Assembly (NCBI GenBank): GCA_039801905.1
Contig: JBDRVQ010000004.1
Location: 2,332-66,331 of the forward strand
Direction: 5' to 3'
Length of the DNA: 64,000 bases
DNA from: a candidate division WOR-3 bacterium
GTDB lineage: Bacteria; Hydrothermota; Tepidihabitantia; Tepidihabitantales; JBDRVQ01
The position numbers and the translations under genes were made by a program. Within the stretch, counting starts at the first letter, position 1. Each line of letters starts with the position of its first letter. The notes beneath the pieces are model-generated. The model saw only the letters and a program-made list of their open reading frames with translations, searched no databases and was not told the DNA's origin. Shown piece after piece: positions 5,167-57,471 of the stretch.

Positions 5167-5194
5167 TTGACAAAAGAAAAAATTTTGCTAAAAT
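5167..5194 (+). promoter_or_regulatory. Sigma70-like promoter for the pseudopilin operon: TTGACA, 16-nt spacer, TAAAAT, with the ATG 7 nt downstream
   Basis: ttgacaaaagaaaaaattttgctaaaat, then ataagtt, then the ATG at 5202. No Shine-Dalgarno sequence. Confidence 0.5.
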
Positions 5195-5201
5195 ATAAGT
5201 T

Positions 5202-5735
5202 ATGAAAAAGAGGAAAGGGTTCACCATTTTGGAGTTAATGGTTGTCATTTTCATTCTGGGCATTCTCCTTTCTATGCAAGTCCCCAACTTCCGGCTGATA
5301 AGAGAAAGGGCAAGACAGACGGCGGTGAAGGCAAATATGCGCTATGTCCAGGTGGCGATTGAAACCTTTTTCTTAGAAAGGGGTCATTACGCGGATGATT
5401 TTTATGAGGATGGCTACGGTTATATCTTCCCGGGTGGGGTCTACGAACAAAAATTGGGAAAGTTTCCTACCAATCCTTACACCGGTCAAGAGATGACCCC
5501 AGAAGATTTTAACGAAGAGGACTACGATAGCAAAGAAGAATGTTCTGATACCCGAGAGGGTGGTCCCAACGATTTATTTGATTACGCCCCCGGTCAGATG
5601 CGCTATGGGGCATATTATCCCCCGGGGATGTCTGAGCCGTCAAATTGGGGATTAGTGGGTTTCAATGGTTTCGGCGCGAGTATTCGTTCCTACACCCCGG
5701 ATGGGGAAGTGGTGATTTTTGTCTTGCATAACTAA
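5202..5735 (+). CDS. Prepilin-type N-terminal cleavage/methylation domain protein (pseudopilin or minor pilin)
   Basis: N-terminus MKKRKGFTILELMVVIFILGIL is a class III signal with G/F cleavage and Glu at +5. Confidence 0.75.
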   Translation: MKKRKGFTILELMVVIFILGILLSMQVPNFRLIRERARQTAVKANMRYVQVAIETFFLERGHYADDFYEDGYGYIFPGGVYEQKLGKFPTNPYTGQEMTPEDFNEEDYDSKEECSDTREGGPNDLFDYAPGQMRYGAYYPPGMSEPSNWGLVGFNGFGASIRSYTPDGEVVIFVLHN

Positions 5736-5737
5736 CT

Positions 5738-6265
5738 ATGAAAAGGAAAGGGTTCACTTTGTTAGAAATTATGATCGTCATCTCCATAATTGGGACCCTC
5801 CTTGCTTTTTTCGTGCCCCCGCTCGTCTCCCGAATCCAGCAGAATGCCCGGATTACCGCGACAAAGCGGAATCTTATGGAACTGCGAAAGGCGATTGTCG
5901 GCAATCCGGAGATTATCGGCGGTGGTCAATATTTAGACTTAGGATTTAAGGGCGATGTGGGCCGTTTGCCTCGTCATTTAATTGAACTCCTTACTAACCG
6001 TCCGGATACAGTGAGAGGATTTGAATATCCAGGAAGGGAATCAATTCCGGCTTGGGACCCTTTCACTAAAAAGGGTTGGCATGGTCCTTATGTGCGGGAT
6101 GATGGCAAATTGGGTTTCTTAGAAGATGCCTGGGGTAATCCGATTCTTTATCACATCTCACCGAGTGGGGAAACGATAGGTTTAAAGAGTGCTGGTCCGG
6201 ATGGTGAGTGGTATCCACCACCAAGCGGCTCAGCCGAGAATGACGATATCATTGTCTTATTTTAA
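5738..6265 (+). CDS. Prepilin-type N-terminal cleavage/methylation domain protein (pseudopilin)
   Basis: N-terminus MKRKGFTLLEIMIVISIIGTL. Confidence 0.75.
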   Translation: MKRKGFTLLEIMIVISIIGTLLAFFVPPLVSRIQQNARITATKRNLMELRKAIVGNPEIIGGGQYLDLGFKGDVGRLPRHLIELLTNRPDTVRGFEYPGRESIPAWDPFTKKGWHGPYVRDDGKLGFLEDAWGNPILYHISPSGETIGLKSAGPDGEWYPPPSGSAENDDIIVLF

Positions 6266-8163: not shown

Positions 8164-9774
8164 ATGGCTGATTTTAATATTAAGAAGATTTTTAAACCAG
8201 AAGGTAGAGGCGAGTTAAGTATTGATATCGGAACCGGTTCGGTTAAATTCGTTTTGATGGATAAAGGAAGGGTTGTTGATTACGGTTTACGGGAGATTAC
8301 AGAGGTGACCGATGTGCCGGGAGTGATCCGGGATTTATTACGAGATATAAAACCTTCTCAGGTCTATACCTTCGTCTCGGGCCCGGCAGTGAGTATGCGG
8401 CAGGCGCCATTCCCCAGGATGTCAAGGAAAGAGTTGAGAGATTCCATCCTTTTGCGTCTTGACCGCTATTCACCATTTTCTTTAGATGAGGCGATTTTAG
8501 ATTTCCACCCCTTAGGTGTGGTGATGGAAGCAGGCGCTCCACGGGATAATGTGATGGTGATTGCCGCCCGAAAGGATGTGATCTCCGACCACATCTCAAC
8601 GGTGAGGAAGGTTGGTTTGGAGCCGACCGCGATCTCGGTTGTGCCTTTCGCCCTGGCGGGAGCGGTGAGGCAATTTGTGAAACCCCGACGGGAAGAGGTG
8701 ATTTGCGTTTTGGACATCGGCTCGGAATTCACCGATATCGTCTTTATGCGTGGGGAGAATATTGAACTCGCCCGGACGGTGACCGTGGCCGGCAAGAGTA
8801 TTACCGAGGCGATGACCATTTCTATTGCCACAGAGGAAGGGCAACTTTTCCTCACCGCCGAAGAGGCAGAAAGATATAAAAGAGAATACGGTATACCGCC
8901 GGAAGATTCCGAAGACCGCTTACCTTCAGGAATTAAGGTGAAGAGAATTTTCGCGGTGCAGAGGACCGCCTTGGAGCGATTGATCGCGGAATTGGACCGG
9001 AGTATTGATTTCTACAAACGGGAGTTTTCGGTTCCAACCATCTCCCGGATTCTTTTGTGCGGAGGCGGTGCGCTGATGCGGGGATTGCGAGAATATATGG
9101 AAGCTAACCTAAAAATTCCCACTGAGATTTTTGACCCGTTTAAAGCCTATAACCTTTATAAACCCGGGACGAAAGAAGAGATTGGTCCCCGTTTGGTCGC
9201 GGCCCTCGGTTTACACTTTGACCACCGGGCAATTAATCTCTTACCAACCGAACTGAAGGCAAAACGTTATCAGAAGCGGGATATCGCCTTAGTGGTAGGG
9301 ATGATGGTTATCGCCATTCCCATTTTTATCCTTATCTATCTCTTTTTAACAACCCAAGAGGTTGTGGATAAAGGGAAGTTGCGGAGGGTGGAAAAAGAAT
9401 TGAGGGAAGAGGAGAAAATTGCCCAGGAACACCTTGCCCTTTCCAAAAGAGTTTCAGACTTAGAGGCAGAAGGTAAACTTTTACGGAGCATCGTGGGTGA
9501 AGAGGAGATCACCGTTCCTTTCCTAAAATATATCAGTCGAGCTATTCCGAGTAATATCCAACTGACCAGCCTCACTTTTACCGGATTGAAAACAGTGAAG
9601 ATGAAGGGGATTGTGACCGGCTTACCAGAATTTCAGGAGATTGATTTAGCCTCCTTTATGGTTAACCTGGAATTGGGGAAGGAGATGAAAGGGGTAAAAC
9701 TGGTAAGTAAGACGAAGACGATTCTGGAAGGGGAAGAGGTATTGGAATTTGAATTGGAATGTGAAAAGGAGTAG
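8164..9774 (+). CDS. pilM: Type IV pilus assembly protein PilM fused to a PilN-like transmembrane/coiled-coil C-terminal region
   Basis: Actin-like N-terminus (SIDIGTGSVKFVLMD). The C-terminal ~170 aa has one transmembrane helix (ALVVGMMVIAIPIFILIYLF) and a coiled coil. AGGAGGA lies upstream. Confidence 0.7.
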   Translation: MADFNIKKIFKPEGRGELSIDIGTGSVKFVLMDKGRVVDYGLREITEVTDVPGVIRDLLRDIKPSQVYTFVSGPAVSMRQAPFPRMSRKELRDSILLRLDRYSPFSLDEAILDFHPLGVVMEAGAPRDNVMVIAARKDVISDHISTVRKVGLEPTAISVVPFALAGAVRQFVKPRREEVICVLDIGSEFTDIVFMRGENIELARTVTVAGKSITEAMTISIATEEGQLFLTAEEAERYKREYGIPPEDSEDRLPSGIKVKRIFAVQRTALERLIAELDRSIDFYKREFSVPTISRILLCGGGALMRGLREYMEANLKIPTEIFDPFKAYNLYKPGTKEEIGPRLVAALGLHFDHRAINLLPTELKAKRYQKRDIALVVGMMVIAIPIFILIYLFLTTQEVVDKGKLRRVEKELREEEKIAQEHLALSKRVSDLEAEGKLLRSIVGEEEITVPFLKYISRAIPSNIQLTSLTFTGLKTVKMKGIVTGLPEFQEIDLASFMVNLELGKEMKGVKLVSKTKTILEGEEVLEFELECEKE

Positions 9775-13718: not shown

Positions 13719-16478
13719 TTAGAATTTAATCACCTTCTGCCAAAGGCTACCTTCCTTGGTCTTAATCCGGACGAAGTAGACACCAGCGTTATTTGCCTGC
13801 CAGACGAAGTGGTAGTTTCCCGGATTAGAAATCCCTTCCTGCAATTGGGCAATCTGCCGACCCGTAGCATCATGGATGGAGAGAGAGACTTCGCTTCTCT
13901 TTTTCAATTCGTAGGCGATATTTAAGGATTGGTTAAAGGGATTAGGATAGCAGGAGATTTGGGTTAAATTCTTTAAGGGTGTCTTCTCTTCTTCCATCCC
14001 GACCATTTCGTGGAAGCCGGCATATTTGGCGATATAGTTATTAGGACCGCCTGCCGCCAGTTCCATTATCGTGACCCAGAGGGTAGCATTTCTTGGGTCG
14101 TATTCCACACCGCGGGCGTTATAGAGTTCGGGAATTAAGAAGCGTTGGAGGATGGTGAGATTATCTCGGTTCATCTCGTAGACACCAACACTGTCAAGGG
14201 CGGTGCCTTGGGAGTTGAAGGAGGTATAAACATGGATGAGGGTTGGGAGATTGGGGTTGGAAGGGGTTCTTTCTAAGGCGAGACAGCGGGGACCATAATT
14301 GGCACTTAAAGGAACATTCATTCTTCTTATCTGATTTCCTAAGGTGTCAGTAACATAGATATAACCGGGTAGGGCACCCAAAGCACTTCTGCGGTCTGCC
14401 AGATATAAGATGCGGTTATTCTCATCCCAGGCAAGTCCGGTTGGATAGTCATTAGCCGGGTTACTGAAATATCTGAGAACCGAACCAGTAGCGGATATTT
14501 TATAAACTCTTTTTGTCTGATTGGAAGCAACCCAGAAGGTATTGTCATAGGCACAGTATTTGATATCGGTGCAGGCACTTTCGTTATTTGGGGTTGGGAT
14601 GGTGCCTAAGGGGGTGAGGAGAGAATCGGAGGAGAACATATAGATATTTCTCGCTCGGAAATGGCAGACATAGATTCGGTTATTGGTCGGGTTGTAGGCG
14701 ATACCATAAAGACCAGCAGTGCTCGGCACACCAGATACCTGGGTTGGACCCCATAATCTGGTTCCTGGTTGCTGAACGGGTTGACCAATGGTTAAGGTGA
14801 AGGTTCTGGTCCAGGATGTTTCATTACAGACTAAATAGAGGGTTAAATTGGCGGTATAGCCTCGCGGTGTAGAAGAACTGGCACTTAAAACAAATGGGTC
14901 GGAAAGGTTATTGGTGCTATCATTACCCGGCACATTACCGAAATTGGCAAGAGAGTCAGAGATAGTAAGATATGGGTCATTTTCTCTTAGTGTTCCCCTC
15001 AGATTGGTTGCTTGGATCGCGGTGGTATTTTTTAAGTAGGTGATTAGATTGCCGGTTTCACCTGGGTCAAGCCGACCATTGCCATTTTCACCAGTAATCG
15101 CGGTGCGGGCGAGGATGATATTTGGTTTATTGGCGGGCACCATCGCATCTAAGATCTTCTTGCAATTTAACCTTCCCCAGCCGTAGTTATTATTAGGATA
15201 GGTGCCGCCTTGGGAAGGGCGGTCGGCATTATTGGTGATATAATTAAATGCCTGGTCTGGGGTTAAACTGGGCATCTTTTCCAGCATTAAGGCGACTGCG
15301 CCACCAACATGGGGAGAAGCCATTGAGGTTCCGGACATTGTACCATAACTACCACCAGGAAGAGCGGAACGGACTGTGCCCGGAGCGGAAATCGCGGGAT
15401 TGATTAAGTTCCAATCGCTTCTGGGCCAGTTGGCGGGATTGTTCCAGGGGTCTTGGTTTGGTGCCGGTCCACGGCTGGAATAACTTTCAATATCATCATT
15501 GGAGTTGGTGGCACCAACGCCAATCACGATGGGATAACTCCCTGGAGCATTAGAAGTTCCGGAGGAAGGACCGCTATTGCCAATGGAGGCAACAACAATA
15601 ATGCCAAGATTTCGCAAATTGACAATATAACTCCACCAGGTGGTTGTCGTTCGGCCACTTCCCCAAGAGTTGGAGATGACATTGGGACGACCGGTATTGG
15701 CAAACCAGTTAAAGCAAGCACTTATCCAGGATGCTTGACCAGAACCATTAGCATCAAATGCCTTGGCGCAGATGAAAGTAGCACCCGGGGCAACACCGAT
15801 GTCGTTGGCGAAAGGTCCTAAACCATCACCCCCGGTCATTGTGCCCATGGTGTGGGTGCCGTGACCATTGTCATCATAAGGGGAACTTTGACCATTGACC
15901 GCATCGTACCAGCCATTGGTGGAGCGCCAGCGACCACCAAATGCCGGATGGGTAACTTCAACTCCGGTATCCATATTGGCAACAACCACCCCTTGACCGG
16001 TATAGCCATCCATCCAGCAGGTATCCGCTCTCACTTTGGTGATGTTCCATTCCGGGGTTTCGGTGGCATCTTGCTCGGTTGTCTCCCCGAGCCAGACATC
16101 ATCAAGTTTGACAATGAAGTCATCCATCACAAAGTCAACATCTTCCCGATTGGCTAACTCTCTAATCACTTCTGGGGTTGTCTTTAAGGCGATATCAGAA
16201 ACCAAAGAAAAACATCTTATATCTTCGGCTTTTACAGTTTTGAGATATTCCAAGATGCCTTTCTGCGCTCTTTCGGCAACAAATTTTAAGTATTCAATCT
16301 TTTCGTCATAGGTGGCATCGGGAGGTAAGAGAGAAAGGTCGGCTTGTTCTTTGGTTCGCACGATGATGCCGATCATATCCGAAGGGGAAGCGTTTTTTAA
16401 GATTGCCTCAAGTTCTGGGACAATCCTCCCTGCCCAGAGGCAGGCGGCTAAGAAGAAAAGGATAAATAGCCTTTTCAT
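13719..16478 (-). CDS. S8 subtilisin-family serine peptidase with a T9SS C-terminal sorting domain
   Basis: Catalytic triad motifs DTGVEVTHPAF, HGTHTMGTMTG and GTSMASPHVGG. Signal peptide MKRLFILFFLAACLWAG. C-terminus ...GVYFVRIKTKEGSLWQKVIKF. GGAGG lies upstream. Confidence 0.85.
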   Translation of the reverse strand: MKRLFILFFLAACLWAGRIVPELEAILKNASPSDMIGIIVRTKEQADLSLLPPDATYDEKIEYLKFVAERAQKGILEYLKTVKAEDIRCFSLVSDIALKTTPEVIRELANREDVDFVMDDFIVKLDDVWLGETTEQDATETPEWNITKVRADTCWMDGYTGQGVVVANMDTGVEVTHPAFGGRWRSTNGWYDAVNGQSSPYDDNGHGTHTMGTMTGGDGLGPFANDIGVAPGATFICAKAFDANGSGQASWISACFNWFANTGRPNVISNSWGSGRTTTTWWSYIVNLRNLGIIVVASIGNSGPSSGTSNAPGSYPIVIGVGATNSNDDIESYSSRGPAPNQDPWNNPANWPRSDWNLINPAISAPGTVRSALPGGSYGTMSGTSMASPHVGGAVALMLEKMPSLTPDQAFNYITNNADRPSQGGTYPNNNYGWGRLNCKKILDAMVPANKPNIILARTAITGENGNGRLDPGETGNLITYLKNTTAIQATNLRGTLRENDPYLTISDSLANFGNVPGNDSTNNLSDPFVLSASSSTPRGYTANLTLYLVCNETSWTRTFTLTIGQPVQQPGTRLWGPTQVSGVPSTAGLYGIAYNPTNNRIYVCHFRARNIYMFSSDSLLTPLGTIPTPNNESACTDIKYCAYDNTFWVASNQTKRVYKISATGSVLRYFSNPANDYPTGLAWDENNRILYLADRRSALGALPGYIYVTDTLGNQIRRMNVPLSANYGPRCLALERTPSNPNLPTLIHVYTSFNSQGTALDSVGVYEMNRDNLTILQRFLIPELYNARGVEYDPRNATLWVTIMELAAGGPNNYIAKYAGFHEMVGMEEEKTPLKNLTQISCYPNPFNQSLNIAYELKKRSEVSLSIHDATGRQIAQLQEGISNPGNYHFVWQANNAGVYFVRIKTKEGSLWQKVIKF

Positions 16479-16899
16479 TTAAGACCTCCAAAAGGCTTTT
16501 TAATATAAAGCATTTTTTCCTCATCCAGCCCGGAAGCTGGATTGGTTAATTTTAATTGAGGAATGGAAAAAGTCAAGGATACACTTGGCTATAATGTTCC
16601 TAAATAGTCTATAGACCATTCAGGCTTAGATCGGAAGAAGATTGTGGCTAAAGCAAAGGTATTATGGAGACAGAATATAAAATTTATGTTAAAAAACTAT
16701 TCGCTCAAATTAAGAAGGTAAGTATTTATGGCAATCGTCCTCTCTCAATCTTATGCTCAAAAAACAGACTTCCCCAATACGCCCGACAAGTCCTTTTAGA
16801 AAACCTATTAAGAAGGGTGGTGTGATTAAATATAAAGTAAAAAAGGTTTTGCTTTTTTAGAGCCGCTTAAAACTATTCAGAATTATCTTGACCAGGACT

Positions 16900-17300
16900 A
16901 AATTTCGCAAGTTTTTCATAATTTTTATTATTCCATCCTAATTAAATTAGGCGACATAAAAGTCGCCTAACAAGAAAAGCCCTTTCTTTTTAAGTCTTTT
17001 ATTCTCAACAATTTATTGCTTTTGAGATAAATTTTAAGTGAGCCCTACCACCGCCTCCTTTATTACCTCCCCTCCCACCTTTTATCCACGCTTCGGACGA
17101 TGCTTTCGGGAGTAATTTTTCCGGGAGTTAGATCTCTAATTTTTCCCCTAATTTCTTTCGGAAAGAGATGCCTGGTTTTCTCACTGGTTTCTTCTTTCGG
17201 AAAAGGCATATGAAAATTTCTAATTTCTTACCTAATCCCCGGACTAATTTTGAAAGGGGAGGAATGGGTAGCGAGATATTCGGTTTTTTAAATCTCTTCT
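16900..17300 (+). repeat. Copy A of a ~400-bp repeated upstream element, containing a GGCGAC-ataaaa-GTCGCC hairpin, a second hairpin with a T-run, and about four TCTAATTT boxes
   Basis: Aligns over its whole length with 38545-38945. Shared blocks include ggcgacataaaagtcgcct, ctttcttttaagt, accaccgcctcc, ctaattt repeated several times, ccggactaattttg and gagatattcggtttttt. Confidence 0.7.
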
Positions 17301-17302
17301 GT

Positions 17303-17331
17303 TTGACAAAGCCTCAAATGTCAAGTAAAAT
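17303..17331 (+). promoter_or_regulatory. Sigma70-like promoter: TTGACA, 17-nt spacer, TAAAAT, with the ATG 6 nt downstream
   Basis: ttgacaaagcctcaaatgtcaagtaaaat, then agatt, then the ATG at 17337. Confidence 0.5.
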
Positions 17332-17336
17332 AGATT

Positions 17337-18686
17337 ATGAAATCATTTTTGGCCGAGATTTTTACCGGTTTAGATATTGACTATGGTGATATCCGAGTTG
17401 AGGAGAGCGCGGTCTCAAGTATTGTCTTTCGGGGCAAGGAGTTGGACGAATGCCGGCAGAATTTTGAAAAGGGTGGCATCTTACGGCTTTTTAAGAATGG
17501 GAATTGGGTCTCTGCCAGTTTCAATCGGATTGATGAGGGCTTAAAAGAATTGGCGAAGAAGAAGGCAAAGGAGTTAGAACTCTTGCCGCCAAAACGGCTT
17601 TCGCTTTCCCTTCTTCCCAGAATTGAAATTTATGCGGAAAAGCAAAGGGAAGATTCTCTCCCCTTAACGGCAAAGGTAGAATTATTAAGGGGTTATAATG
17701 AGATTCTCCTTCGCTTTCCGGGAATTGTCTCTACTCTTTCTGGTTATGGCGAGCGGGATAAGAAGATTTATTTCTATTCTACGGAGGATAGATACATTGA
17801 AGAGGTAAGTAGATACTTTCGGATTTTTTTACAGGCGATTGCCCGGGATGGCACAAATATCCAGGACTATGCCGAATCTTTTGCCTCCCGAAGAGGGATT
17901 GCGGATTTACAAGGGAAGGAAGAGGTGGTGGAGAAGATTGCCAAGATGGCATTGGATTTATTGAAGGCGGAAAAGGTTGATGCCGGAGTCTATACCTGTG
18001 TCATTGACCCACGCCTGGCTGGAGTTTTTGCCCATGAGGCGTTCGGTCACCTTTCGGAAGCGGACTTTCTCTACACAAACGAAAGGCTGAAGGAGTTATT
18101 GAAGATTGGCACGACCTATGGGGTTTCGGAACTGGCAATTGTTGATGACCCAACGATAAAAGATGAGTGGGGGAGTTATCAATTTGATGATGAAGGGGTA
18201 GAAAGTAGAAGAACTTCTCTCATTCGGGAAGGGAAGATCTCTTCCCATCTCCATTCCAAAGAGACCGCCTCCGCAATGGGTGAGGATTTAACCGGGAATG
18301 CGAGGGCAGTTAGTTATCGCTTCCCACCGATTGTCCGGATGTCTAATACCTTTATTGAACCCCGGGATAAGAAATTGGAGGAGATGATTGGGGAGATTGA
18401 CAATGGGCTCTATGTGGCCGGGACCAGAGGCGGAACGACCGAATTGGAGTTTTTCACCTTCTCTTCCCAATTTGCTTATAAGATTGAGAAGGGAAAGAAG
18501 ACAAAGTTGGTACGCGATGTGATAATTCAGGGGAATATCTTTGAGACTTTAAGGAATATTGATATGATTGGCAATGATTTGATTTTCTGGCCCGGGGGTT
18601 GTGGTAAGGGGGGACAATCGCCTCTGCCCGTCGCGACCGGTGGTCCTCACATCCGGATTAAAAATTGTCTGATTGGAGGAAAATGA
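17337..18686 (+). CDS. TldD-family metalloprotease (second copy)
   Basis: 449 aa. AHEAFGHLSEADFLY HExxxH motif. Same layout as the 2369 gene. Confidence 0.75.
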   Translation: MKSFLAEIFTGLDIDYGDIRVEESAVSSIVFRGKELDECRQNFEKGGILRLFKNGNWVSASFNRIDEGLKELAKKKAKELELLPPKRLSLSLLPRIEIYAEKQREDSLPLTAKVELLRGYNEILLRFPGIVSTLSGYGERDKKIYFYSTEDRYIEEVSRYFRIFLQAIARDGTNIQDYAESFASRRGIADLQGKEEVVEKIAKMALDLLKAEKVDAGVYTCVIDPRLAGVFAHEAFGHLSEADFLYTNERLKELLKIGTTYGVSELAIVDDPTIKDEWGSYQFDDEGVESRRTSLIREGKISSHLHSKETASAMGEDLTGNARAVSYRFPPIVRMSNTFIEPRDKKLEEMIGEIDNGLYVAGTRGGTTELEFFTFSSQFAYKIEKGKKTKLVRDVIIQGNIFETLRNIDMIGNDLIFWPGGCGKGGQSPLPVATGGPHIRIKNCLIGGK

Positions 18687-22404: not shown

Positions 22405-25400
22405 TTATCTTTTGAGGTAGAAGTTAAAAGGGATGGAAACCCAAACCCGAACGGGAATATCCTTTTGCCGGGCGGGACTAAATTTTGCCTGCCGAGCGGC
22501 AACTAATGCCGCCTCATCCAAGGCATCGTTACCCGAAGATTTTAAGATTTGGGCATCAATCACTGAGCCATCAACCTCAACTAATACCTTAACAATTGTC
22601 TGTCCTTCAATCCTTGCCCGGCGAGCCATCTCCGGATATTCGGGTTTGGGAATAGAAATGGGGTTCGGTTTTATCTCCACTTTGGCATAAGGGACAATCT
22701 GGGGTGTGGTCTCTTCTTTTGGGGGAGGGGTTGTCTCAACCGGTGGTTGGGAAACGACCGTTTCCGGTTTTGGTTTTACCGCTGGAATTGTCTCGGTTCT
22801 TCGGGCTAAGGTTTCCGCTCTTGGTCTTTGGGCAAGAGTTTCCGGTTTGATCCTCTCTTCTGGAGGAGTTAATGTCTCTTGGGGAACGAGAGTGGCTTGG
22901 GTTGTACTCTCTGGTTTAGTCGCCGCATAAGATATCTTCTTGGGTTTCGGTCGGGAGGAGAGAGCCAGAAAGAGGGATAATGCCAATACTAAAACTATCC
23001 CTACGCCAATTAAAGCGGTTTTCGGAATTTTTGGCAGTTTCTTTATCTTAGGATAAGCAACTTTTACCTTTTCTTCTTTCACCGGGATTAACTCTTTCCC
23101 TTTACTCAAGATGACTTTTACAACTTCGCCTTCTTTTAAGGTCTCACCAGGCAGGGGGGATTGTTGAATGATAGAATCTTTGGCATAAGTTTCAGAATAC
23201 TCTTCCCCTTCAATAAGCAGTTTAAGGTTCAGGTCCCAAATAATTTTTTCGGCTTCCTTTCTCTTTTTCCCCAATAATGACGGGACAACAATTATCTTTC
23301 TCTCAATCGGTTTTTTTCCTTTACTCAAAATTACCCGAATCGTGCTTCCCTCGGGTAATTCTTCACCCGGGTCTGGGGTTTGACTCAAAATGCAATCTTT
23401 GGGAATTTTCTCGGAGAAGTCCTCCCATTCTATAACCAACTTTAATCCGAGTTTACTTAGTTCTTTTTCCGCCTCGGAAATTGTCTTACCGATGAGGTTG
23501 GGAGATCGGACCGGCTCTTTGCCTTTACTTAATACCACCCGGATCAAGCCCTCAGTCACTACTGCTTCGGGTTCGGGTGACTGCTTGACGATTCTCCCTT
23601 TCGGAATAACGTTATGATATTCCCAAGATTCAGTAACTAACTTTAAGCCTAAATTAGAAACAATCTTTTCCGCCTCGGATAGGGTCTTGTCAATCAGGAC
23701 TGGGGCTTTAAGTGGTCTTTTCCCTTTGCTGATGACGACCTTTACTTCTTCTCCTAATTTCAATTTCGCTCCCGCGGCTGGAGTTTGGCTCATCACTACC
23801 CCGGGAGGCAATTCTGAGAATTCTTCCCCCTCTATTTTAATTTTTAGTCCCAAGGAGGATAGAATCTTTTCTGCCGATTTTTTCTCTTCGTTGATTAAAA
23901 GGGGAACTCTCACCAACTCCGGTCCTTTACTCTCAATGATTTTGAGAATATCACCTTCTTTCAATTCGGCACCGGCTTCGGGGATCTGCTTAAAGATTAT
24001 TCCGGCCGGAAATTCATTGGCGTACTCTTCTTCTATGATTAACCTTAAATTGAGGTCGGCGATAATTTTTTCTGCCTCTTCCTTCTTCTTTCCGATAAGG
24101 GGAGGGACTTTAATAATTTTCACCACCGCTGGTTTCTTGCCTTTACTGAGCACCACTTCCACCACCCCTCCCGCTTTTAAGTTTTTGCCGGACGGTGGAT
24201 TCTGGTCTACGACGGCATTAGCCGGGATATTTTCCGAGAAATCTTCCCTTTCAATTTTTATTTTAAGTCCGAGGCTATTAAGGGTTCTTTCTGCTTCTTT
24301 TAATTCCTTACCGATGAGGTTGGGGACGGCAATTAGTTTTTCCCCTTTACTTAAAATCACTTTTACTGTTTCTCCCTTTCTTAGAGATTCGTTTGGAGAT
24401 GGGGATTGGCGGAGGATTCTTCCCAGGGGGATATCTGGGGAATAATCTTCTCCGGCTACGACCAGTTTCAGTCCTAAGGGGTAGAGGATTTTTATCGCCT
24501 CGCCTTCGGTCTTTTCGGTCAGGTCGGGGACTTTAATGAGGGGGAGACCCTTGCTTAGGGTCACCTTTACACTTTCTCCCTCTTTCAATTGGGTTTCGGC
24601 AGGGGGCGATTGTTTTAGGACGCATCCCTCTTCAATGGTTTCGGAATAGTCTTGATTTTCAACCAGTAATTTTAAGCCCAAATTCTGAAGGAGGCTTTCC
24701 GCTTCCTCCTTTTTCCTGCGGACTAATGATGGGACCTTGACGACTTTCACGACAGGTGGTTTCTTCCCCTTACTCAAAATGACCTTCACCGCCTCCCCGG
24801 ATTTCACTTCCGTCCCCCCGGCTGGCTTCTGGTTAATGATACTATTGGCGGGAACTGTCTCCGAGAAATCTTCCCTTTCAATTTTTATTTTGAGTCCGAG
24901 GCTATTAAGGGTTCTTTCTGCTTCTTTTAATTCCTTACCGATGAGGTTGGGGACGGCAATTAGTTTTTCCCCTTTACTTAAAATCACTTTTACTGTTTCT
25001 CCCTTTCTTAGAGATTCGTTTGGAGATGGGGATTGGCGGAGGATTCTTCCCAGGGGGATATCTGGGGAATAATCTTCTCCGGCTACGACCAGTTTCAGTC
25101 CCAAGGGGTAGAGGATTTTTATCGCCTCGCCTTCGGTCTTTTCGGTCAGGTCGGGGACTTTAATGAGGGGGAGACCCTTGCTCAATATTATCTTTATCGT
25201 TTCCCCTTCTCTCAATTGGGTATTAGGCGCGGGAGTCTGTTTTAAGACCATACCCTCCGGTATCTCTTCGGAATATTCCTCACCTTCAAAGATGATTGTC
25301 AATTTATTTCTTTTTGCTTCCGCTTCCGCTTCCGCTTTTCTTTTGCCGACCAGATTGGGACAAAAGACTAATCTTTTTCCTTTACTTAAAATAACCTTTA

Positions 25401-26877
25401 CACTTTCTCCTTCTTTCAATTGGGTGTTAGGTTCGGGCGACTGTTTTATGATAGAGCCTTCGGGGATGGTTTCGGAATAATCTTCTTTTTCGATCATTAA
25501 TTTCAGGCCCAAGTTAGTTAAGGTCAATTCCGCTTCCTTTTTTGCTTTGCCCACCAGAGGAGGGACCTTAACGATTTTGACGAGCGGAGGTCTCTTTCCT
25601 TTGCTGAGAATAACTTTAATCACCTCCCCGAATTTCACTTCCGTACCCACGGCTGGCTTCTGACTGATGATACTATTGGCGGGAACTGTATCTGAGAAAT
25701 CTTCCCCTTCAATCTTCAGTTTTAAACCCAGAGGAGCAAGGAGTCTCTCCGCTTCCTCTTTCCCCTTACCGATAAGGAGGGGCACGGGGATTGGTTTTAA
25801 CGCCTTCCCTTTGCTGACGATTATCTTTACCGCTTCCCCTTCTCCCATCAATGTCCCGGGTTCCGGGGTTTGGTAGAGGATTAAACCTTCGGGGGTGATT
25901 TCTGAGGATTCCTCCCCTTCCAGAAGGATATTTAATTTCTGGGCATTGGCGATCGCTTCCGCTTCCTTTTTCGTTTTTCCAACCAAGGCTGGGCAGGGAA
26001 TGGTTTTTACCTTTTCCACGATCGGTATCTTTTCCTCGGGGGGTTGGGTTAAGGCGGCGAGAAATTCTTCGCAGGTCTGGAAGCGTTCGTTGGGCTTTTT
26101 GGCTAATGCCTTTTCCACTATCTTTTCCCAGGCGAGAGGGATTTTGGGATTTTTCTCCCTAATTTTCGGGGGTGGGGAGAAGAGGTGCTGCTCTTCTACC
26201 GAAGAGGTCTCGGTCCTCTTGAAAGGTACTTCCCCGGTAGCCATTTCGTAAAGGGTAATTCCCAAAGAATAGATGTCGGAGGATTTATTTAGCGGTTTAT
26301 TTAATATCTGCTCCGGGGACATATAAGGGGTAGTGCCCACCCGAATTTCTGAGGCGAGACCCACTCTTTCCCCACTAATAATCCGGGCGATGCCAAAATC
26401 GGTGACCTTAACCTCCCCCGTGGAGGTGAAGAGGATATTGGATGGTTTTAAGTCAAGATGGAGAACGCCCAGGTTGTGGGCATAACCAACCGCTTCTAAG
26501 ACTTGGCGAAAGATAGAAAGAATCTGCTCTTCGGGTAGCGGTCCTTTTTTAATCAAATCGCTTAGCGTTCTTATTCTTTGCCCATCGGGAAGCGTCATCC
26601 CTTCCAGGTATTCCATTACGATATAATAGACTCCTTCCTCCTGGAAGAAATTATGGATGAGGACGATATGGGGATGTTTTAATTTTGCTTGGGTTTCCGC
26701 TTCTTTGAAGAAACGTTCCTTAAATTTTGGTTCTTTGGTTAAGAAGGTGTGGAGGGTCTTTAAGGCAACCGGTTGTTCTAAGACGCGGTGGATCGCTTTG
26801 TAAACGGTGCCAAAACCACCCTCACCGATTTCTTCAACGATTTTATAATAACCAAAGCCCACAATCCTTTCCGCCAT
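22405..26877 (-). CDS. Ser/Thr protein kinase fused to 14 PASTA repeats, one transmembrane helix, a Pro/Thr-rich spacer and a TonB C-terminal domain
   Basis: Kinase subdomains (GEGGFGTVYKA, HLDLKPSNILF, DFGIA, TTPYMSPE). Fourteen ~70-aa units each ending VILSKG. TM TALIGVGIVLVLALSLFLALSS. P/T/E-rich linker. C-terminal PKPEYPEMARRARIEGQTIVKVLVEVDGSV...SSGNDALDEAALVAARQAKFSPA...PVRVWVSIPFNF matches the TonB_C consensus. Confidence 0.8.
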   Translation of the reverse strand: MAERIVGFGYYKIVEEIGEGGFGTVYKAIHRVLEQPVALKTLHTFLTKEPKFKERFFKEAETQAKLKHPHIVLIHNFFQEEGVYYIVMEYLEGMTLPDGQRIRTLSDLIKKGPLPEEQILSIFRQVLEAVGYAHNLGVLHLDLKPSNILFTSTGEVKVTDFGIARIISGERVGLASEIRVGTTPYMSPEQILNKPLNKSSDIYSLGITLYEMATGEVPFKRTETSSVEEQHLFSPPPKIREKNPKIPLAWEKIVEKALAKKPNERFQTCEEFLAALTQPPEEKIPIVEKVKTIPCPALVGKTKKEAEAIANAQKLNILLEGEESSEITPEGLILYQTPEPGTLMGEGEAVKIIVSKGKALKPIPVPLLIGKGKEEAERLLAPLGLKLKIEGEDFSDTVPANSIISQKPAVGTEVKFGEVIKVILSKGKRPPLVKIVKVPPLVGKAKKEAELTLTNLGLKLMIEKEDYSETIPEGSIIKQSPEPNTQLKEGESVKVILSKGKRLVFCPNLVGKRKAEAEAEAKRNKLTIIFEGEEYSEEIPEGMVLKQTPAPNTQLREGETIKIILSKGLPLIKVPDLTEKTEGEAIKILYPLGLKLVVAGEDYSPDIPLGRILRQSPSPNESLRKGETVKVILSKGEKLIAVPNLIGKELKEAERTLNSLGLKIKIEREDFSETVPANSIINQKPAGGTEVKSGEAVKVILSKGKKPPVVKVVKVPSLVRRKKEEAESLLQNLGLKLLVENQDYSETIEEGCVLKQSPPAETQLKEGESVKVTLSKGLPLIKVPDLTEKTEGEAIKILYPLGLKLVVAGEDYSPDIPLGRILRQSPSPNESLRKGETVKVILSKGEKLIAVPNLIGKELKEAERTLNSLGLKIKIEREDFSENIPANAVVDQNPPSGKNLKAGGVVEVVLSKGKKPAVVKIIKVPPLIGKKKEEAEKIIADLNLRLIIEEEYANEFPAGIIFKQIPEAGAELKEGDILKIIESKGPELVRVPLLINEEKKSAEKILSSLGLKIKIEGEEFSELPPGVVMSQTPAAGAKLKLGEEVKVVISKGKRPLKAPVLIDKTLSEAEKIVSNLGLKLVTESWEYHNVIPKGRIVKQSPEPEAVVTEGLIRVVLSKGKEPVRSPNLIGKTISEAEKELSKLGLKLVIEWEDFSEKIPKDCILSQTPDPGEELPEGSTIRVILSKGKKPIERKIIVVPSLLGKKRKEAEKIIWDLNLKLLIEGEEYSETYAKDSIIQQSPLPGETLKEGEVVKVILSKGKELIPVKEEKVKVAYPKIKKLPKIPKTALIGVGIVLVLALSLFLALSSRPKPKKISYAATKPESTTQATLVPQETLTPPEERIKPETLAQRPRAETLARRTETIPAVKPKPETVVSQPPVETTPPPKEETTPQIVPYAKVEIKPNPISIPKPEYPEMARRARIEGQTIVKVLVEVDGSVIDAQILKSSGNDALDEAALVAARQAKFSPARQKDIPVRVWVSIPFNFYLKR
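24232..25197. repeat. Near-identical tandem direct repeat (period 627 bp, ~335 bp nearly identical) inside the kinase gene, duplicating three PASTA units
   Basis: Sequence 24232-24570 matches 24859-25197 with only 2-3 mismatches. The antisense ORFs 23687-24445 and 24737-25072 end in an identical 70 aa. Confidence 0.8.
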
Positions 26878-32751: not shown

Positions 32752-32794
32752 AAATTTTTTTGGGAAGAGAAACGTCTCTTATTTTCCCTATGCT

Positions 32795-32995
32795 GATGAG
32801 TCTTAAAATTAGTCCGCCGATGAGAAATTTTATCATTTCCCTCCCTGGACCTTTTTCCCCCACCTTTCTTTTTCCCTTTCCCTTGCCATTGATTGGGCGT
32901 TTCATTCTTCCTTTTATTAAACTATAAATTAGGTCATTTAAAAGAGGAGAAAGGGCTGGGAGGTGGTGGTAGGGGGGATAACCTTTGAAAGGTGA
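32795..32995 (-). repeat. Diverged, truncated, inverted copy (C) of the repeated upstream element
   Basis: The reverse complement carries ccccctaccaccacctccc, gataaaatttctcat and cggactaatttt in the same order, and at similar spacing, as copies A and B. Confidence 0.4.
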
Positions 32996-33001
32996 TATCT
33001 C

Positions 33002-37156: not shown

Positions 37157-38559
37157 AAGGTATGGATACTCTTTCCTAAAATTTTTTCTAAGGTCTCGGA
37201 GATGATTTCGGAAAGGGTGGGATGGGGGTGAATTAAGTTCTCAGTCTCTTCTACCTTTATCTTATTCGATAAGAAAAGGGTAATCTCACTAATTAACTCC
37301 GAGGCAAGAGGGGAGAGGAGAGAGAAGCCTAAGATTTCCCCGGTTTCAGAGAGAACCACCTTGGCGAAACCTTCGGTCCGGCCCAAGGTATAGGCGCGAC
37401 CGATAGCACTTAAAGGAACTCGGTAGACTCTTGGGTTTAACCCTTTTTCTTTTGCCTCCCTTTCCGAAAGACCAACTACCGCCACTTCGGGGTCGGTATA
37501 GATGCAATTGGGAATGAATCGCTTATAATCTTTGGGAAAACTTCTCCTTCCCAAGGCGATAATCTCCGCTAATTTTTTTCCTTCAAACATCGCCTTATGG
37601 GCTAAAAGGGGTGGAGAAGAGCAATCACCAATCGCAAAGACATTCTTTAAGTTGGTCTGAAAATTCTCATCGGTGATGATAAATCCCCGGGCATCTTTTT
37701 CTATACCAACTTTTTCTAAGCCTTCGGTATTCGGCTTTCTGCCGATTGCGACCAGGACCTTTTCCGCCTCAAGGCGCAGTTTTTTCCCTTCCCTATCTTT
37801 TATTAAAAAAAGTTTCTCATCTTCTCTGCCCAAAATCTGAGAGGAGAGATAGAATTTTATCCCTTCTTGCTCTAAGATTTTTTGGAGGCGCTGGGCAATC
37901 TCCTCATCAATTCCGGGGAGGATTTGATTTGTAATCTCAATAACTATCACCTCACTTCCCAATCGGGAATAGATGGTTGCCATCTCCAAGCCAATTGCCC
38001 CGGCGCCAACCACCAAAAGGCTCTTAGGAATCTCTTCGGGCTGGAGAAGGAAGTCGGAATTGACTACGCTTTTGCCATCAAAGGGAATTTCTTTTAAGGC
38101 ACTTGGGAGAGAACCGAGGGCTAAGACGATATTTTGGGCGGAGATTACCTCTTTACTATTTTTTAATCTAACCTTCCCTTCACTAATAATCTCTCCCTCT
38201 TCCCGAATCACCTCACAATTTCTCTTTTTTAAGAGGTATTCAATGCCATTGGTGAGCCGATTCACATTTTTGAAGACCCAGCCTCTCATCATCGGGATAT
38301 CAATTGCCGGCGGGGAGAATTTAATACCCGCAGAATCTAACTCCGCACTCCGTCTTAAAATCTCAGTTAAGTGGAGATAGGCTTTGGTTGGGATACAGCC
38401 TAAATTGAGACAGACGCCACCAATCTTTTCCTTTTCAATCAGGGCGACCTTTTTCCCCAATTGACCGGCACGGAGGGCGCAGGTATAACCCGCTGGTCCA
38501 CTCCCGATAATGAGAATATCAAACATAATGAATATTAACGAGAAATTAAAAAGTTGCAA
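37153..38559 (-). CDS. lpdA: Dihydrolipoyl dehydrogenase
   Basis: FAD motif IIGSGPAGY, redox-active disulfide GGVCLNLGCIPTK, NAD motif VVGAGAIGLE, and the C-terminal HPHPTLSE interface. Confidence 0.85.
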   Translation of the reverse strand: MQLFNFSLIFIMFDILIIGSGPAGYTCALRAGQLGKKVALIEKEKIGGVCLNLGCIPTKAYLHLTEILRRSAELDSAGIKFSPPAIDIPMMRGWVFKNVNRLTNGIEYLLKKRNCEVIREEGEIISEGKVRLKNSKEVISAQNIVLALGSLPSALKEIPFDGKSVVNSDFLLQPEEIPKSLLVVGAGAIGLEMATIYSRLGSEVIVIEITNQILPGIDEEIAQRLQKILEQEGIKFYLSSQILGREDEKLFLIKDREGKKLRLEAEKVLVAIGRKPNTEGLEKVGIEKDARGFIITDENFQTNLKNVFAIGDCSSPPLLAHKAMFEGKKLAEIIALGRRSFPKDYKRFIPNCIYTDPEVAVVGLSEREAKEKGLNPRVYRVPLSAIGRAYTLGRTEGFAKVVLSETGEILGFSLLSPLASELISEITLFLSNKIKVEETENLIHPHPTLSEIISETLEKILGKSIHTL

Positions 38560-38945
38560 GATTATTTTTAAGGCGACATAAAAGTCGCCTATTAAAAGAA
38601 GGGTCTTTCTTTTAAGTTTCGCATTTCCAATAACTTAATTATTTTAGGTTAAATTGAAGTGCACCCCACCACCGCCTCCTTCACCACCCCCCTACCCACT
38701 TCTTATCCGGCATTTTATCCCTAATTTAAGGGGGGATTTTATCTCCAATTAAAGGTCCAATCTCTTCCCCAATTTCTTCCCGGAAAAAAGGGATGGTTTT
38801 ATCCCCAATCTCTTCTCCTGAAAAAGGGAGAAGAAAATCTCTAATTACCTTCCCAATTTCCGGTCTAATTTTGGGCGGGAAAGAATTGGGAGTGAAGTAT
38901 TGAGTTTTTTGGTTTTCCTGCCTCACGTCGAGCGCGTATTAGGTC
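38545..38945 (+). repeat. Copy B of the ~400-bp repeated upstream element
   Basis: GGCGAC-ataaaa-GTCGCC at 38572-38589. TCTCCAATT, CCCCAATTTC, TCTCTAATT and GGTCTAATTTTG boxes. TCTTCTCC-tgaaaaag-GGAGAAGA hairpin. Aligns with copy A. Confidence 0.7.
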
Positions 38946-38947
38946 TC

Positions 38948-38975
38948 TTGACAAAAGACTTTTCTTGGGTATAAT
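38948..38975 (+). promoter_or_regulatory. Sigma70-like promoter: TTGACA, 16-nt spacer, TATAAT, with the ATG 7 nt downstream
   Basis: ttgacaaaagacttttcttgggtataat, then agaagt, then the ATG at 38982. Confidence 0.5.
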
Positions 38976-38981
38976 AGAAGT

Positions 38982-39782: not shown

Positions 39783-39972
39783 TAGAGGCAGCTAATCTCT
39801 CTTTTTTCTGCTTTCCTTATTAAAGACTCAAAGGTGAGGTTACTCTTTCTTGACTATTTCTCCATTCGGAACCGACCCATCCTGGTGAGCGGCGTAAGCA
39901 CTTCCGATGTTTATTTTGTCGCTGTGGGAGAGGGATAAAGAGAAAATAAGGATTTGCTTTTTGATGTTCTCT

Positions 39973-39999
39973 TGACAAGAAGAAAAAAAGGTTTAAGAT
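39973..39999 (+). promoter_or_regulatory. Sigma70-like promoter: TTGACA, 15-nt spacer, TAAGAT, with the ATG 6 nt downstream
   Basis: ttgacaagaagaaaaaaaggtttaagat, then aagtt, then the ATG at 40005. Confidence 0.35.
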
Positions 40000-56306: not shown

Positions 56307-57471
56307 CTACGGAATGATAGCCTTTTCTCCTTGTAAGTAATAAATCCCGCTGGGTAATTCTTTTACCGGAATAGAGTTATCACCTTCCTTTAATCTCAAA
56401 TCCTTCACCTTCTTGCCCAATGAGTTATAGAGGGAAATCTTCTTTGCCTTTTGTGGATTCTTTATAAGAAGTGTTTTATCCTTTATCGGGTTTGCGACGA
56501 TTCTTAAATCAACCTTTCCGGTTTCTCTCTTCTGATTATCTTCTATACCCGGGCCATAAAACTGGTAGATTCCTAAACCACTCCCACTCTCAGCAACATA
56601 GGCATAAGAAGAAACATAAACGCCGCAAGCATAGCCTGGTGTCTCATAATAACCAACCTCATGGAGATTTCGGGGGTTTGAAACATCAATCACCCTTAAA
56701 CCAGCACTATAATCGGCAACATAGGCAGAGGGAGAAGAAACATAAACCTCATGAGCCTCGCCTGGTGTATCATAAGAGTCCACCTCGCGGGGATTAGTGG
56801 GGTCGGAAATGTCTATCACCCTTAAACCAGACCTTCCAGCAGCAACATAGGCATGAGGAAAAGAAATGTAAACATCCCAAGCATAGTCCGGTGTATTATG
56901 AGAGCCCACCTCCCGGGGATTAGTTGGATTGGAAATGTCTATCACCCTCAAACCACCCCCAAAGTCGGCAACATAGGCATGAGAAGAACAAACATAAACA
57001 CCACAAGCCCCGCCTGGTGTATCATAATAACCGACTTCCTGCGGATTAGTAGGATTTGAAATATCAATCACCCTTAGACCAGCATAACCATCAGCAACAT
57101 AGGCATAGGAAGAGGAAACATAAACATCAGAAGCCTCACCTGGTGTATCATAGTAGCCGACCTCCTGCGGATTAGTTGGGTTTGAAACATCTATCACCCT
57201 TAAACCAGAATCTCTATCAGCTACATAGGCATAAGGGAAAGAAACATAAACCTTATAAGCCTCGCCTGGTGTTTCATAAGAGCCGACTTCATGGGGATTT
57301 CTTGGGTCGGAGACATCTATCACCCTTAACGCTCCATCGGCAACATAGGCATAGGAAGAAAAAAGATAAACACCATAAGCCAAGCCTGGTGTATCATAAG
57401 AGCCAATTGAACGAACGTTCAATGAGCCACCAAAAGAGAGGGTGAAAATGAATAAAAGGATATTTCTCATA
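56307..57471 (-). CDS. LVIVD-repeat protein with a T9SS CTD
   Basis: About eight repeats of ...YAYVADGYAGLRVIDISNPTNPQEVGYYDTPG.... Signal peptide MRNILLFIFTLSFG after AAGGAGGT. C-terminus ...SGIYYLQGEKAIIP. Confidence 0.6.

Follow-up and report, generated by a model that had tools for sequence, protein, structure and literature searches.

A conserved non-coding intergenic element with a 12-nt box register in a candidate division WOR-3 bacterium, tentatively read as a self-contained RNA

We followed up a repeated intergenic block in a 64,000-nt stretch of a candidate division WOR-3 bacterium (contig JBDRVQ010000004.1 of assembly GCA_039801905.1; hereafter the window), which an earlier note made from the letters of the DNA had described as a conserved module. 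The results showed that the window carries two full copies, copy A (16947-17291) and copy B (38571-38913), both on the + strand, of an element of ~345 nt that has further copies in related metagenome-assembled genomes (MAGs). The element is non-coding and is probably under selection, judging from sequence comparison, and it contains CTAAT-type boxes kept in a strict 12-nt register. Our tentative preference is to read it as a self-contained + strand RNA, whose phased boxes would bind an oligomeric protein and which would act as a titrating or scaffolding RNA.

Copies A and B were compared by formal alignment. With copy A (16947-17292) as the sole query, nhmmer returned copy B at 38571-38910 (E = 3.3e-39). 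Using blastn, the two aligned over 342 nt at 68.7% identity with 3 gaps (E = 1e-30), and the next match in the window had an E-value of 0.26. The MAFFT alignment of the pair included a 288-nt block without gaps. The similarity that the earlier note had reported between the two copies therefore stands far above background. However, its limits of 16900-17336 and 38545-38981 were too wide, since the true limits are those of copies A and B given above and the segment 16900-16946 was not alignable with copy B. The combined use of nhmmer and cmsearch placed the match of copy A at 16946-17298, and cmsearch recovered copy B at 38568-38919 of the window. When copy A was aligned with seven other copies, the conservation ended abruptly on both sides, at the AGGCGAC hairpin on the left and at GGTAGTGAGGTATTTGGTTTTT, which holds the T-run, on the right. 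The flanks of the eight copies, including the promoters, did not align with one another.

Copy A occupies a gap with no long open reading frame (ORF) between an S8 peptidase gene (13719-16478, - strand) and a TldD-like gene (17337-18686, + strand). Copy B occupies the gap between an lpd-like gene (ATG at 38526, - strand) and a secreted-protein gene (start at 38982, + strand). Both copies thus lie in divergent intergenic regions and in the same orientation, as had been claimed. A profile hidden Markov model (HMM), a phase-aware box scan and a covariance model agreed on two full copies in the window; of the copies that had been put forward for building a family model, A and B are full, but there is no third full copy in the window.

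The window matches contigs of several WOR-3 MAGs. A scan of species-representative genomes for the exact left-edge hairpin gave 42 stretches, six of them from the WOR-3 MAG JBDRVU01 (copies and contigs outside the window are cited below by L numbers). All six JBDRVU01 stretches carried the whole module, one of them degraded and broken by an assembly gap. The identity between paralogues was 62-76% with a star-like pattern, and the paralogues were still full-length. In L134, whose TldD is 92% identical, an orthologous copy of A was found upstream of TldD.

The boxes of every copy follow a 12-nt register. In copy A the CTAAT box array extends over 17136-17255 on the + strand, with boxes at 17136, 17148, 17220, 17232 and 17244 in a single 12-nt phase (P ~5e-5). 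Eight of the nine C[TC]AAT boxes of copy B (38721-38865) shared one 12-nt phase, and the ninth, at 38627, was off phase. The number of C[TC]AAT boxes ranged from 4 to 12 per copy. Across six lineages 11 copies were tested, and one 12-nt phase held all or nearly all boxes of each copy (P from 6e-4 to 1e-12 after Bonferroni correction). Spacings between boxes were 12, 24, 36, 48 or 60 nt in all copies and species. When the alignment was set out in 12-column units, the register began at the C-rich core and continued over ~21 units as far as the right edge, and the degenerate units between boxes kept the 12-nt length. A super-period of 36 nt, consisting of two boxes and one hairpin-forming unit, was repeated three times. 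The array of copy L046 has deletions of 24 and 12 nt; otherwise there were almost no indels in the array across the paralogues. The extended form of the box is (A)AAGGTCTAAT, or ATTAGACC on the other strand. Since the register is kept at deep divergence, a partner that reads the array with a footprint of 12 nt (or 12 bp) is implied. The earlier count of about four boxes spaced 35-45 bp apart was accordingly replaced by 4-12 boxes in a 12-nt register with degenerate units between them, while the resemblance of the iterated boxes to a binding-site array was upheld as an appearance.

The remaining parts of the element, all on the + strand, are given here for copy A from left to right. The left edge is formed by H1 (16949-16968), a perfect hairpin or palindrome with the sequence AGGCGAC-ATAAAA-GTCGCCT, which was located by exact pattern search (0.03 sites expected by chance). 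Its inner part GGCGAC-ATAAAA-GTCGCC lies at 16950-16967 in copy A and at 38572-38589 in copy B, where the whole hairpin covers 38571-38590. The H1 stem showed no variation in the eight aligned copies (A, B and six of JBDRVU01), and the orthologue of A in L134 has a single substitution, which is G-U-compatible on the + strand and gives an A-C mismatch on the - strand. A weak A/U hairpin, AAGAAAAG-CCC-TTTCTTTTT, followed by a T-run was read directly from the sequence at 16972-16991 and is loosely conserved across the family alignment. The alignment columns then define an A/T-rich stretch (16992-17039) that ends in a conserved, -10-like hexamer TA[AG]A[TC]T (TAAATT in copy A), 7 nt ahead of the invariant core. 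The C-rich tract (17040-17089) begins with this near-invariant core, GAGCCCTACCACCGCCTCC, which was found by pattern search at 17040-17058 in A and 38661-38679 in B and is the most conserved block of the family. The tract is able to pair with the G-rich 3' segment on either strand. The perfect hairpin, the AAGAARRG-type hairpin with its T-run and the C-rich tract had all been listed in the earlier note, and each was confirmed by position.

Two further hairpins and a T-run complete the element. A small hairpin between boxes, hp_a (17151-17169), folds in A, L013 and L007; four of its six pairs have changes on both sides, and L007 retains the hairpin with the unrelated sequence CCGCC/GGCGG. Folding placed a long imperfect hairpin, H7, at 17223-17277, which joins the box CCTAAT to the complementary AATGGG in the G-rich segment GGAATGGGTAGCGAG. 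The energy of H7 was -12 to -20 kcal/mol in 6 of 7 copies and -9.6 kcal/mol in L046, and the hairpin contains G-U pairs as well as four pairs with changes on both sides. The T-run GGTTTTTT at 17284-17289 (38904-38909 in copy B) marks the right edge and is kept in 6 of 8 full copies (A, B, L134, L013, L008 and L010), with an A-run in its place in L007 and a GC hairpin in L046.

Two observations were made beside H1. In L010 (1926-1948) the loop of H1 is flipped, TTTTAT standing for ATAAAA, and both stem arms are unaltered; from the sequence this looks like a small inversion across the palindrome. A GAGCCG(C/T) motif occurs at 16862-16868 of the window and ~17 nt left of the hairpin in L013 and L010, where the flanks are otherwise unrelated, and the motif may recur by chance or may extend the element as an optional part.

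The coding potential of the element was examined in all copies. Every copy has stops in all six frames, and no frame is open in all copies. The mismatches between A and B were distributed over the codon phases as 34/39/32, with no 3-nt periodicity. In five copies the C-rich core is covered by a recurrent short ORF that starts with GTG (V-S-P-T-T-A-S...). However, the third positions of the core are invariant and the start codon is lost in two copies, where it is CTG, so the conservation is at the nucleotide level. Coding on either strand, whether as a frameshifted repeat protein, a Gly-rich C-terminus or the precursor of a TldD-processed peptide, was rejected on account of the stops and the lack of 3-nt periodicity. 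Rfam 15 gave no match at the gathering threshold in the window and, with the E-value relaxed, only chance-level matches over A and B (best E = 0.08), whose scores fell far short of gathering. At the six JBDRVU01 loci the same database detected a tRNA and a cobalamin riboswitch and nothing at the elements. A T-box RNA was also considered and dropped, as the element has a passing likeness to it in AAUUAGGG...GGUGGUA only, with no covariance-model support.

Conservation was measured against the adjacent gene. Copy A and its orthologue in L134 are identical at 331 of 346 positions (95.7%), compared with 74% at the four-fold sites and 79.6% at the third codon positions of the adjacent TldD gene. 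An orthologue identity so far above the four-fold-site rate suggests purifying selection, and the paralogues, which at 62-76% identity remain full-length with almost no indels in the array, give independent support for it. The orthologue retrieved for copy B came from a contig of the same species (Lpd 99% identical) with 4 differences in 343 nt, and was uninformative on selection.

The secondary structure was then compared between strands. The structure predicted from the alignment (alifold) on the + strand had 13 pairs changed on both sides, compared with 6.9 ± 2.0 in column shuffles (2 of 500), and 42 pair types compared with 36.4 in the shuffles (3 of 500); both are measures in which false positives are rare. 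In contrast, the structure of the - strand did not beat the shuffles by either count (109 of 500 and 279 of 500). Hairpin H7 was more stable on the + strand than as its reverse complement in 7 of 7 copies, by 1-8 kcal/mol and in six of them by 4-8 kcal/mol, an advantage that comes from its G-U pairs. Helices H2, H4 and H7 contain many G-U pairs, which become A-C on the opposite strand, and a U-run follows H7 in 6 of 8 copies. On these fold models, we lean towards a small RNA, terminator or insulator over a classical operator array, because compensatory changes and strand-specific G-U helices favour the former.

The genes beside the copies were recorded at every locus. Neighbours include gyrB, a pyrB-like gene (aspartate carbamoyltransferase), rimP, a DNA methylase, tRNA-Ile, lpd, TldD/TldE-Lon, an S8 peptidase and hypothetical genes. 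The regulon of proteases and secreted proteins (cargo of the type IX secretion system) that had been suggested was not supported, because the neighbours are functionally diverse, the relative in L135 is inverted and the copy in L010 faces a convergent gene; the signal for such a regulon in the window came from sampling two copies only. At every locus examined the element lies outside mRNA units, after terminators and before promoters. With this placement and the diversity of neighbours, a stand-alone gene fits better than the operator of a regulon.

The self-contained RNA that we tentatively favour would be organized as follows. The family consists of several old paralogues per genome, each a self-contained non-coding unit, and each would be transcribed from the + strand, that is, as the CUAAU strand. 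The RNA would begin with the GC hairpin H1, continue with the A/U-rich stretch and the near-invariant C-rich segment, and then present 7-10 (G)GUCUAAU boxes (up to 16 in relatives) in the 12-nt register. H7 and the U-run would close the unit just before the promoter of the neighbouring gene. An oligomeric RNA-binding protein would dock on the boxes in a multivalent fashion, each of its subunits taking up 12 nt, and the RNA would titrate or scaffold this protein after the manner of CsrB/RsmZ, with different boxes.

The element shares several features with the CsrB/RsmX/Y/Z RNAs, which are likewise non-coding, ~100-350 nt long, intergenic and stand-alone, often present as several diverged paralogues per genome, and equipped with many short motif copies that, in their case, bind an oligomeric protein. 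However, the Csr/Rsm motif is GGA (ANGGA) in hairpin loops, whereas the boxes of the element read (G)GUCUAAU (AUUAGACC on the opposite strand) and are rigidly spaced by the 12-nt register; CTAAT/ATTAG is the box that is conserved, and only some units contain GGA. The element matched none of the Csr/Rsm models of Rfam, and neither a clear promoter nor a canonical terminator was found for it, H7 with its U-run being like a terminator only in a loose sense. The (G/U)AG repeats bound by TRAP and the UAG repeats bound by HutP have a period of 5-7 nt and lie within the 5' leader of the regulated operon. The element resembles them in its fixed-period boxes, some of which overlap the arm of a hairpin before a U-run, its last boxes being the 5' arm of H7. 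It differs from them in its period of 12 nt, in the promoter of the downstream gene that intervenes, and in having unrelated downstream genes. The antitoxin RNAs of type III toxin-antitoxin systems (ToxI-like) are tandem repeats of ~36 nt, similar to the threefold 36-nt super-period of the element followed by a hairpin and U-run. A type III system was rejected, since each locus has a different gene downstream and no toxin domain was seen in any of these genes.

If the element is a functional RNA or a nucleoprotein site, it would add a non-coding family not described before to WOR-3, a phylum without cultured members in which, to our knowledge, hardly any regulatory RNA is known. It is possible, though we regard this as speculative, that it represents a new class of scaffold or titrating RNA, in which 8-16 (G)GUCUAAU boxes, one per 12 nt, template a regular protein filament or ring stack in thermophilic WOR-3, or else an equally novel filament on duplex DNA with 12 bp per subunit. 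Were the scaffold or titrating class real, several paralogues would give graded or condition-specific titration. Given the rigid architecture, in which sequence-specific boxes keep a 12-nt register for 100-200 nt, the partner protein is predicted to have a footprint of 12 nt. For annotation, the element accounts for long ORF-free gaps and repeated contig breaks in the MAGs of the clade.

Several results weigh against a self-contained + strand RNA or are neutral towards it. The covariation term of RNAalifold was slightly unfavourable on both strands, the comparison with shuffles used only 7-9 sequences, and the structure tested was derived from the same alignment. Fold z-scores of the whole element were similar on the two strands (~-2.5 on the plus and ~-2.2 on the minus). 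The duplex of C-tract and G-tract reached -32 to -38 kcal/mol on the minus strand and -21 to -36 kcal/mol on the plus, and this pairing is driven by base composition. Helices rich in A/U and G-U pairs would be marginal at hot-spring temperature, the habitat being assumed from sample names. The H1 stem is invariant and does not covary, which suits sequence-specific recognition, for example of a DNA palindrome, and the consistent position of the right end near a promoter is explained more directly by a DNA-level upstream element.

Signals for the transcription of such an RNA were also few or weak. No near-consensus promoter was found ahead of the element on either strand. Upstream of H1, weak promoter matches (9/12) were present in only 3 of 8 full copies scanned, the minus strand of A and B showed no -35/-10 pair upstream, and the hexamer TA[AG]A[TC]T had no -35 match above 3/6 in the two copies scored (B and L010). 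At the ends of the element, H1 is without a U-tract on either strand and the terminator scan reported none; H7 is long, imperfect and ~7 nt away from the U-run, and the canonical terminators of these genomes look different. The case for selection carries a caveat as well, because the third-position identity of TldD varied from 0.66 to 0.94 per 150 nt, and with a single orthologous pair a local recombination patch could inflate the identity.

The alternative that accounts for several of these points is a DNA-level element, which we consider a serious but doubtful candidate. It would consist of 12-bp-phased direct repeats and the 7-6-7 palindrome AGGCGAC-N6-GTCGCCT, bound near a promoter by a polymerising DNA-binding protein that acts as an activator, repressor, architectural factor or insulator between divergent promoters. 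The promoters beside the element are the first argument for it. Copy A is followed by the TldD promoter TTGACA-17-TAAAAT (17303-17331, + strand; 11/12 matches in the promoter scan), which is leaderless with the ATG at 17337. Copy B is followed by the promoter of the secreted-protein gene, TTGACA-16-TATAAT (38948-38975, + strand; 12/12 matches), with the ATG at 38982. The -35 box starts 12 nt past copy A and 35 nt past copy B, and in 6 of 8 full copies the -35 of a near-consensus promoter begins 3-35 nt past the right edge of the element, L010 and L046 having none. Usually 37-70 nt separate the right end from the start of a gene. To the left of the element the distances range from 45 to ~470 nt, and that side, too, often has outward-facing promoters; at most loci the element is placed between promoters of this orientation. 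The lpd promoter beside copy B was read from the sequence as TTGCAA-16-TAATAT-ATG. A DNA-level element would also fit the palindrome, whose stem is invariant and whose A/T loop can be flipped (L010) without loss, as for a dimer operator, and it would explain the strict direct-repeat register, typical of iteron or centromere-like arrays, and the finding of no promoter for the element itself.

However, many genes without the element also have near-consensus promoters, so the adjacency may simply reflect compact intergenic regions. The window has about a dozen promoter matches of at least 10/12 ahead of gene starts, near-consensus and often leaderless, and a special link between the element and strong promoters was rejected because such promoters are common at genes across the window. 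The earlier claim that the module ends at a leaderless promoter was correct in that the promoters are real and adjoin the element, but they lie outside the conserved columns, at variable distance, and are the ordinary promoters of neighbouring genes. Further points against a DNA-level element are that the downstream genes share no function, that the L135 relative is inverted with its array at least 300 nt from the TldD promoter, that the L142 relative lies at the 3' end of a gene, and that L010 faces a convergent gene, which has a canonical terminator of its own. In duplex DNA there is no role for compensatory changes in the hairpins or for helices whose G-U pairs are specific to one strand, the 12-bp period is off the helical repeat, and the full 345 nt are conserved rather than the boxes alone.

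Among known DNA arrays, tubC of prophage c-st is 352 bp long; its direct repeats come in blocks, to which a spreading protein binds (PMC6009700). The iteron or centromere-like arrays (parC, tubC) are like the element in having phased direct repeats over a few hundred bp beside a promoter. They are unlike it in standing upstream of their own partition operon on plasmids or prophages, whereas the element has several chromosomal copies by unrelated genes and shows signs of single-strand structure. The element loci had no adjacent partition or replication genes of the kind served by such arrays, and no plasmid or phage match. An oriV-like layout (AT-rich region, TTATCC and iterons) and a G-quadruplex, both considered from the sequence, were dropped as lacking their defining parts. 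An invertible promoter segment (inverton) was rejected, as no inverted repeats flank the element, the promoter lies beyond it, and 6 of 6 contigs of the window's species have the same orientation.

An unlikely explanation is that the element is a one-way insulator of the Rho type. The C-rich tract and boxes of the + strand would form a Rho utilization (rut) site, with H1, the A/U hairpin and H7 with its U-run as pause or termination points, and the insulator would stop stray or read-through transcripts before the next promoter, or antisense entry into the next gene. By the published description (RhoTermPredict, PMC6407284), a rut site covers 78 nt in which C>G and cytosines recur at intervals of 11-13 nt. 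The element agrees with that description in having C>G and a cytosine about every 12 nt over at least 78 nt: its C/G ratio was 1.1-2.2 overall and 2.8-7.8 in the best 78-nt window, and nearly every 12-nt unit begins with C. A co-directional gene ends 40-55 nt before H1 in L008 and L046, the + strand is in all contexts directed towards a promoter or the 3' end of a convergent gene, and an insulator would need no promoter of its own. At most loci, however, the upstream gene is divergent, leaving little to terminate. Rut sites are not conserved sequence families, whereas the element keeps a 5-8-nt box, a 19-nt core and hairpins over 345 nt; YC dimers suffice for Rho, which leaves the box UAAU, the invariant core and the 345-nt conservation unexplained. 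The array is also not G-poor (the L136 units are GGTCTAAT, C/G 1.16), and these genomes possess ordinary short intrinsic terminators.

A stand-alone RNA from the minus strand (the AUUAG strand) appears rather improbable. In such an RNA a pyrimidine-rich 5' segment would pair with the G-rich tract, the loop would display the AUUAG(A/G) boxes, and H1 would be the 3' stem-loop. The consensus fold of this strand has a 20-pair long-range helix with many U-G pairs (A-C on the + strand), the segment duplex is the more stable one on this strand by the energies given above, and an array closed by a helix and followed by a terminal hairpin can also be drawn for L135 and L136. The strand is purine-rich, and the -10 regions of the right-hand promoters, as read from their sequences, are A/T-symmetric and could fire divergently. 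Against it stand the shuffles, within which the minus-strand structure falls, and the same lack of an upstream -35/-10 pair in A and B and of a U-tract after H1. The H1 substitution of L134 is an A-C mismatch on this strand, and H7 is worse here in every one of the seven copies.

Little credence is given to a selfish dispersed repeat, either like a miniature inverted-repeat transposable element (MITE) or derived from a hairpin-ended transposon, without host function. The element occurs in several copies, all of them strictly intergenic; its ends are sharp, with a terminal hairpin, and in several assemblies contig breaks lie beside it. Its presence at the same loci varies among related species and so does its orientation (L135 is inverted, and L140 starts inside an ATTAG-oriented box). 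In this it resembles BOX, ERIC, REP/BIME and Correia repeats, modular families that also lie between genes in multiple copies, contain hairpins and are present at some orthologous loci but absent from others. Those families, however, have many fairly similar copies, often with terminal inverted repeats or a known transposase, while the element has few, deeply diverged copies without terminal repeats and is apparently under selection. No terminal inverted repeats, target-site duplications or common target were seen in the flanks, the two ends are unrelated (the AGGCGAC hairpin and GGTAGTGAGGTATTTGGTTTTT), no transposase gene is nearby, and there was no plasmid or phage match. The paralogues are all old yet full-length and in register, and the L134 orthologue is far better conserved than four-fold sites. 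The plain MITE that the earlier note had named as the refuting case was thus not what we found: terminal repeats and duplications are lacking, the paralogues are diverged and the orthologue is conserved.

A protein-coding small gene or repeat peptide, perhaps a TldD/TldE-linked peptide precursor, can hardly be credited, for although the 12-nt period equals four codons, long stretches are open in two frames of the array and the GTG-started ORF recurs, all frames are interrupted in every copy (in some copies by stops inside the longest frame), the mismatches are not 3-periodic, the core third positions are invariant, the start is CTG in two copies, and most copies are not beside TldD/TldE.

More distant relatives of the element were found on contigs of related bacteria. 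L135 (TldD 73% identical) has a diverged relative upstream of TldD, inverted, at 9428-9755, with the terminal hairpin GGACA-CATA-TGTCC in place of GGCGAC...GTCGCC and two hypothetical ORFs called over the region. In L136-L139 (TldD 69% identical) the relative is elsewhere on the contig and has 12 exact and ~16 readable ATTAGA-type units. Its very clean 12-nt tandem array, at 7140-7340 of L136 and also in L137-L139, lies, in this more distant WOR-3 lineage, in a 1.2-kb gene-free gap downstream of Lon and MFS genes, and the flanks of the L136 array can pair (CTCCTGGGT with ACCCAGAGG). In L142 a relative lies downstream of the S8 gene, beyond its terminator. The covariance model recovered the L136 and L142 relatives in the same strand sense. 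No element was found upstream of TldD in L141, L142 and L136, or upstream of lpd in L265 and L266.

Searches outside this group gave no further members. A scan of public metagenomes for the hairpin and core pattern returned 85 stretches, of which none matched the family profile (nhmmer), leaving chance matches only, and BLAST of plasmid and phage collections found no similar sequence. Scanning viral sequences for four ATTAG boxes at 12 nt gave >120 matches, many in giant-virus contigs, which we assumed to be generic 12-nt tandem repeats. From the chance matches in the metagenome scan and the empty plasmid and phage collections, the family seems to be restricted to a WOR-3 clade that is narrow and probably thermophilic, its habitat being judged by sample names.

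Within the window, a 250-nt gap between convergent genes (32752-33001) has a minus-strand segment, CCCCCCTACCACCACCTCCCAGCCC, that resembles the module core CCCTACCACCGCCTCC. Two AAATTAG(G/T)(T/C)C boxes are present in the gap as well, together with a C-rich and a G-rich segment that face each other, and the gap folds no better than shuffles. By its sequence it may be a short degenerate relative of the element.

Contig ends and flanks near the copies were also compared. L140 (1-120) and L264 (1-69), both from run SRR8371833 (TldD 84% and Lpd 74% identical), break beside the two genes: L140 breaks 120 nt upstream of TldD, beginning with TTAGACC..., and L264 breaks 69 nt upstream of lpd. These breaks fall where copies A and B lie in the window, an indication that a repeat interrupted the assembly at both places. 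The 125 nt that precede copy A on its left (16822-16946) are 88% identical to L134, and the homology ends near 16815. The gene upstream of these 125 nt differs, being the S8 peptidase in the window and a phosphoribosyltransferase in L134, and L004-L006, contigs of three other assemblies, end at ~16785-16790. The region of 16815 looks like a rearrangement breakpoint beside the element, on the basis of these alignments. A 20-aa ORF at 16857-16919 was not conserved.

Other features of the loci were noted. After the S8 gene of L142 there is a canonical bidirectional intrinsic terminator (283-305), A8-CGGCGGG-AAAA-CCCGCCG-T-rich, which is of the ordinary type of the clade and unlike H1 or H7. The copy in L013 is followed by tRNA-Ile(GAT) at 5299-5371, with its own promoter TTGACA-16-TATATT. 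Downstream of the tRNA a 280-aa ORF is listed at 5384-6226, without overlap, as a putative gene only. A cobalamin riboswitch (RF00174, 82 bits) at 2834-3089 of L008 is in the locus of one copy and is unrelated to the element.

Across the window, near-consensus promoters of the form TTGACA-16/17-TAnAAT stand 5-8 nt before many start codons, for example at 1914-1942, 5167-5194 and 39972-39999 on the + strand and at 52886-52859 and 54464-54437 on the - strand. Leaderless mRNAs seem to be common in this organism, as far as the promoter positions indicate. The S8 peptidase is an exception to the leaderless pattern and has a GGAGG leader. Two 47-nt segments that span gene starts (57435-57481 and 58724-58770) are 94% identical, and the genes behind them contain 126-nt tandem coding repeats (56575-57409 and 58269-58694). 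Further coding tandem repeats were seen at 52971-54053 (156 nt) and, within a long kinase/PASTA gene, at 23100-26000 (~204-219 nt).

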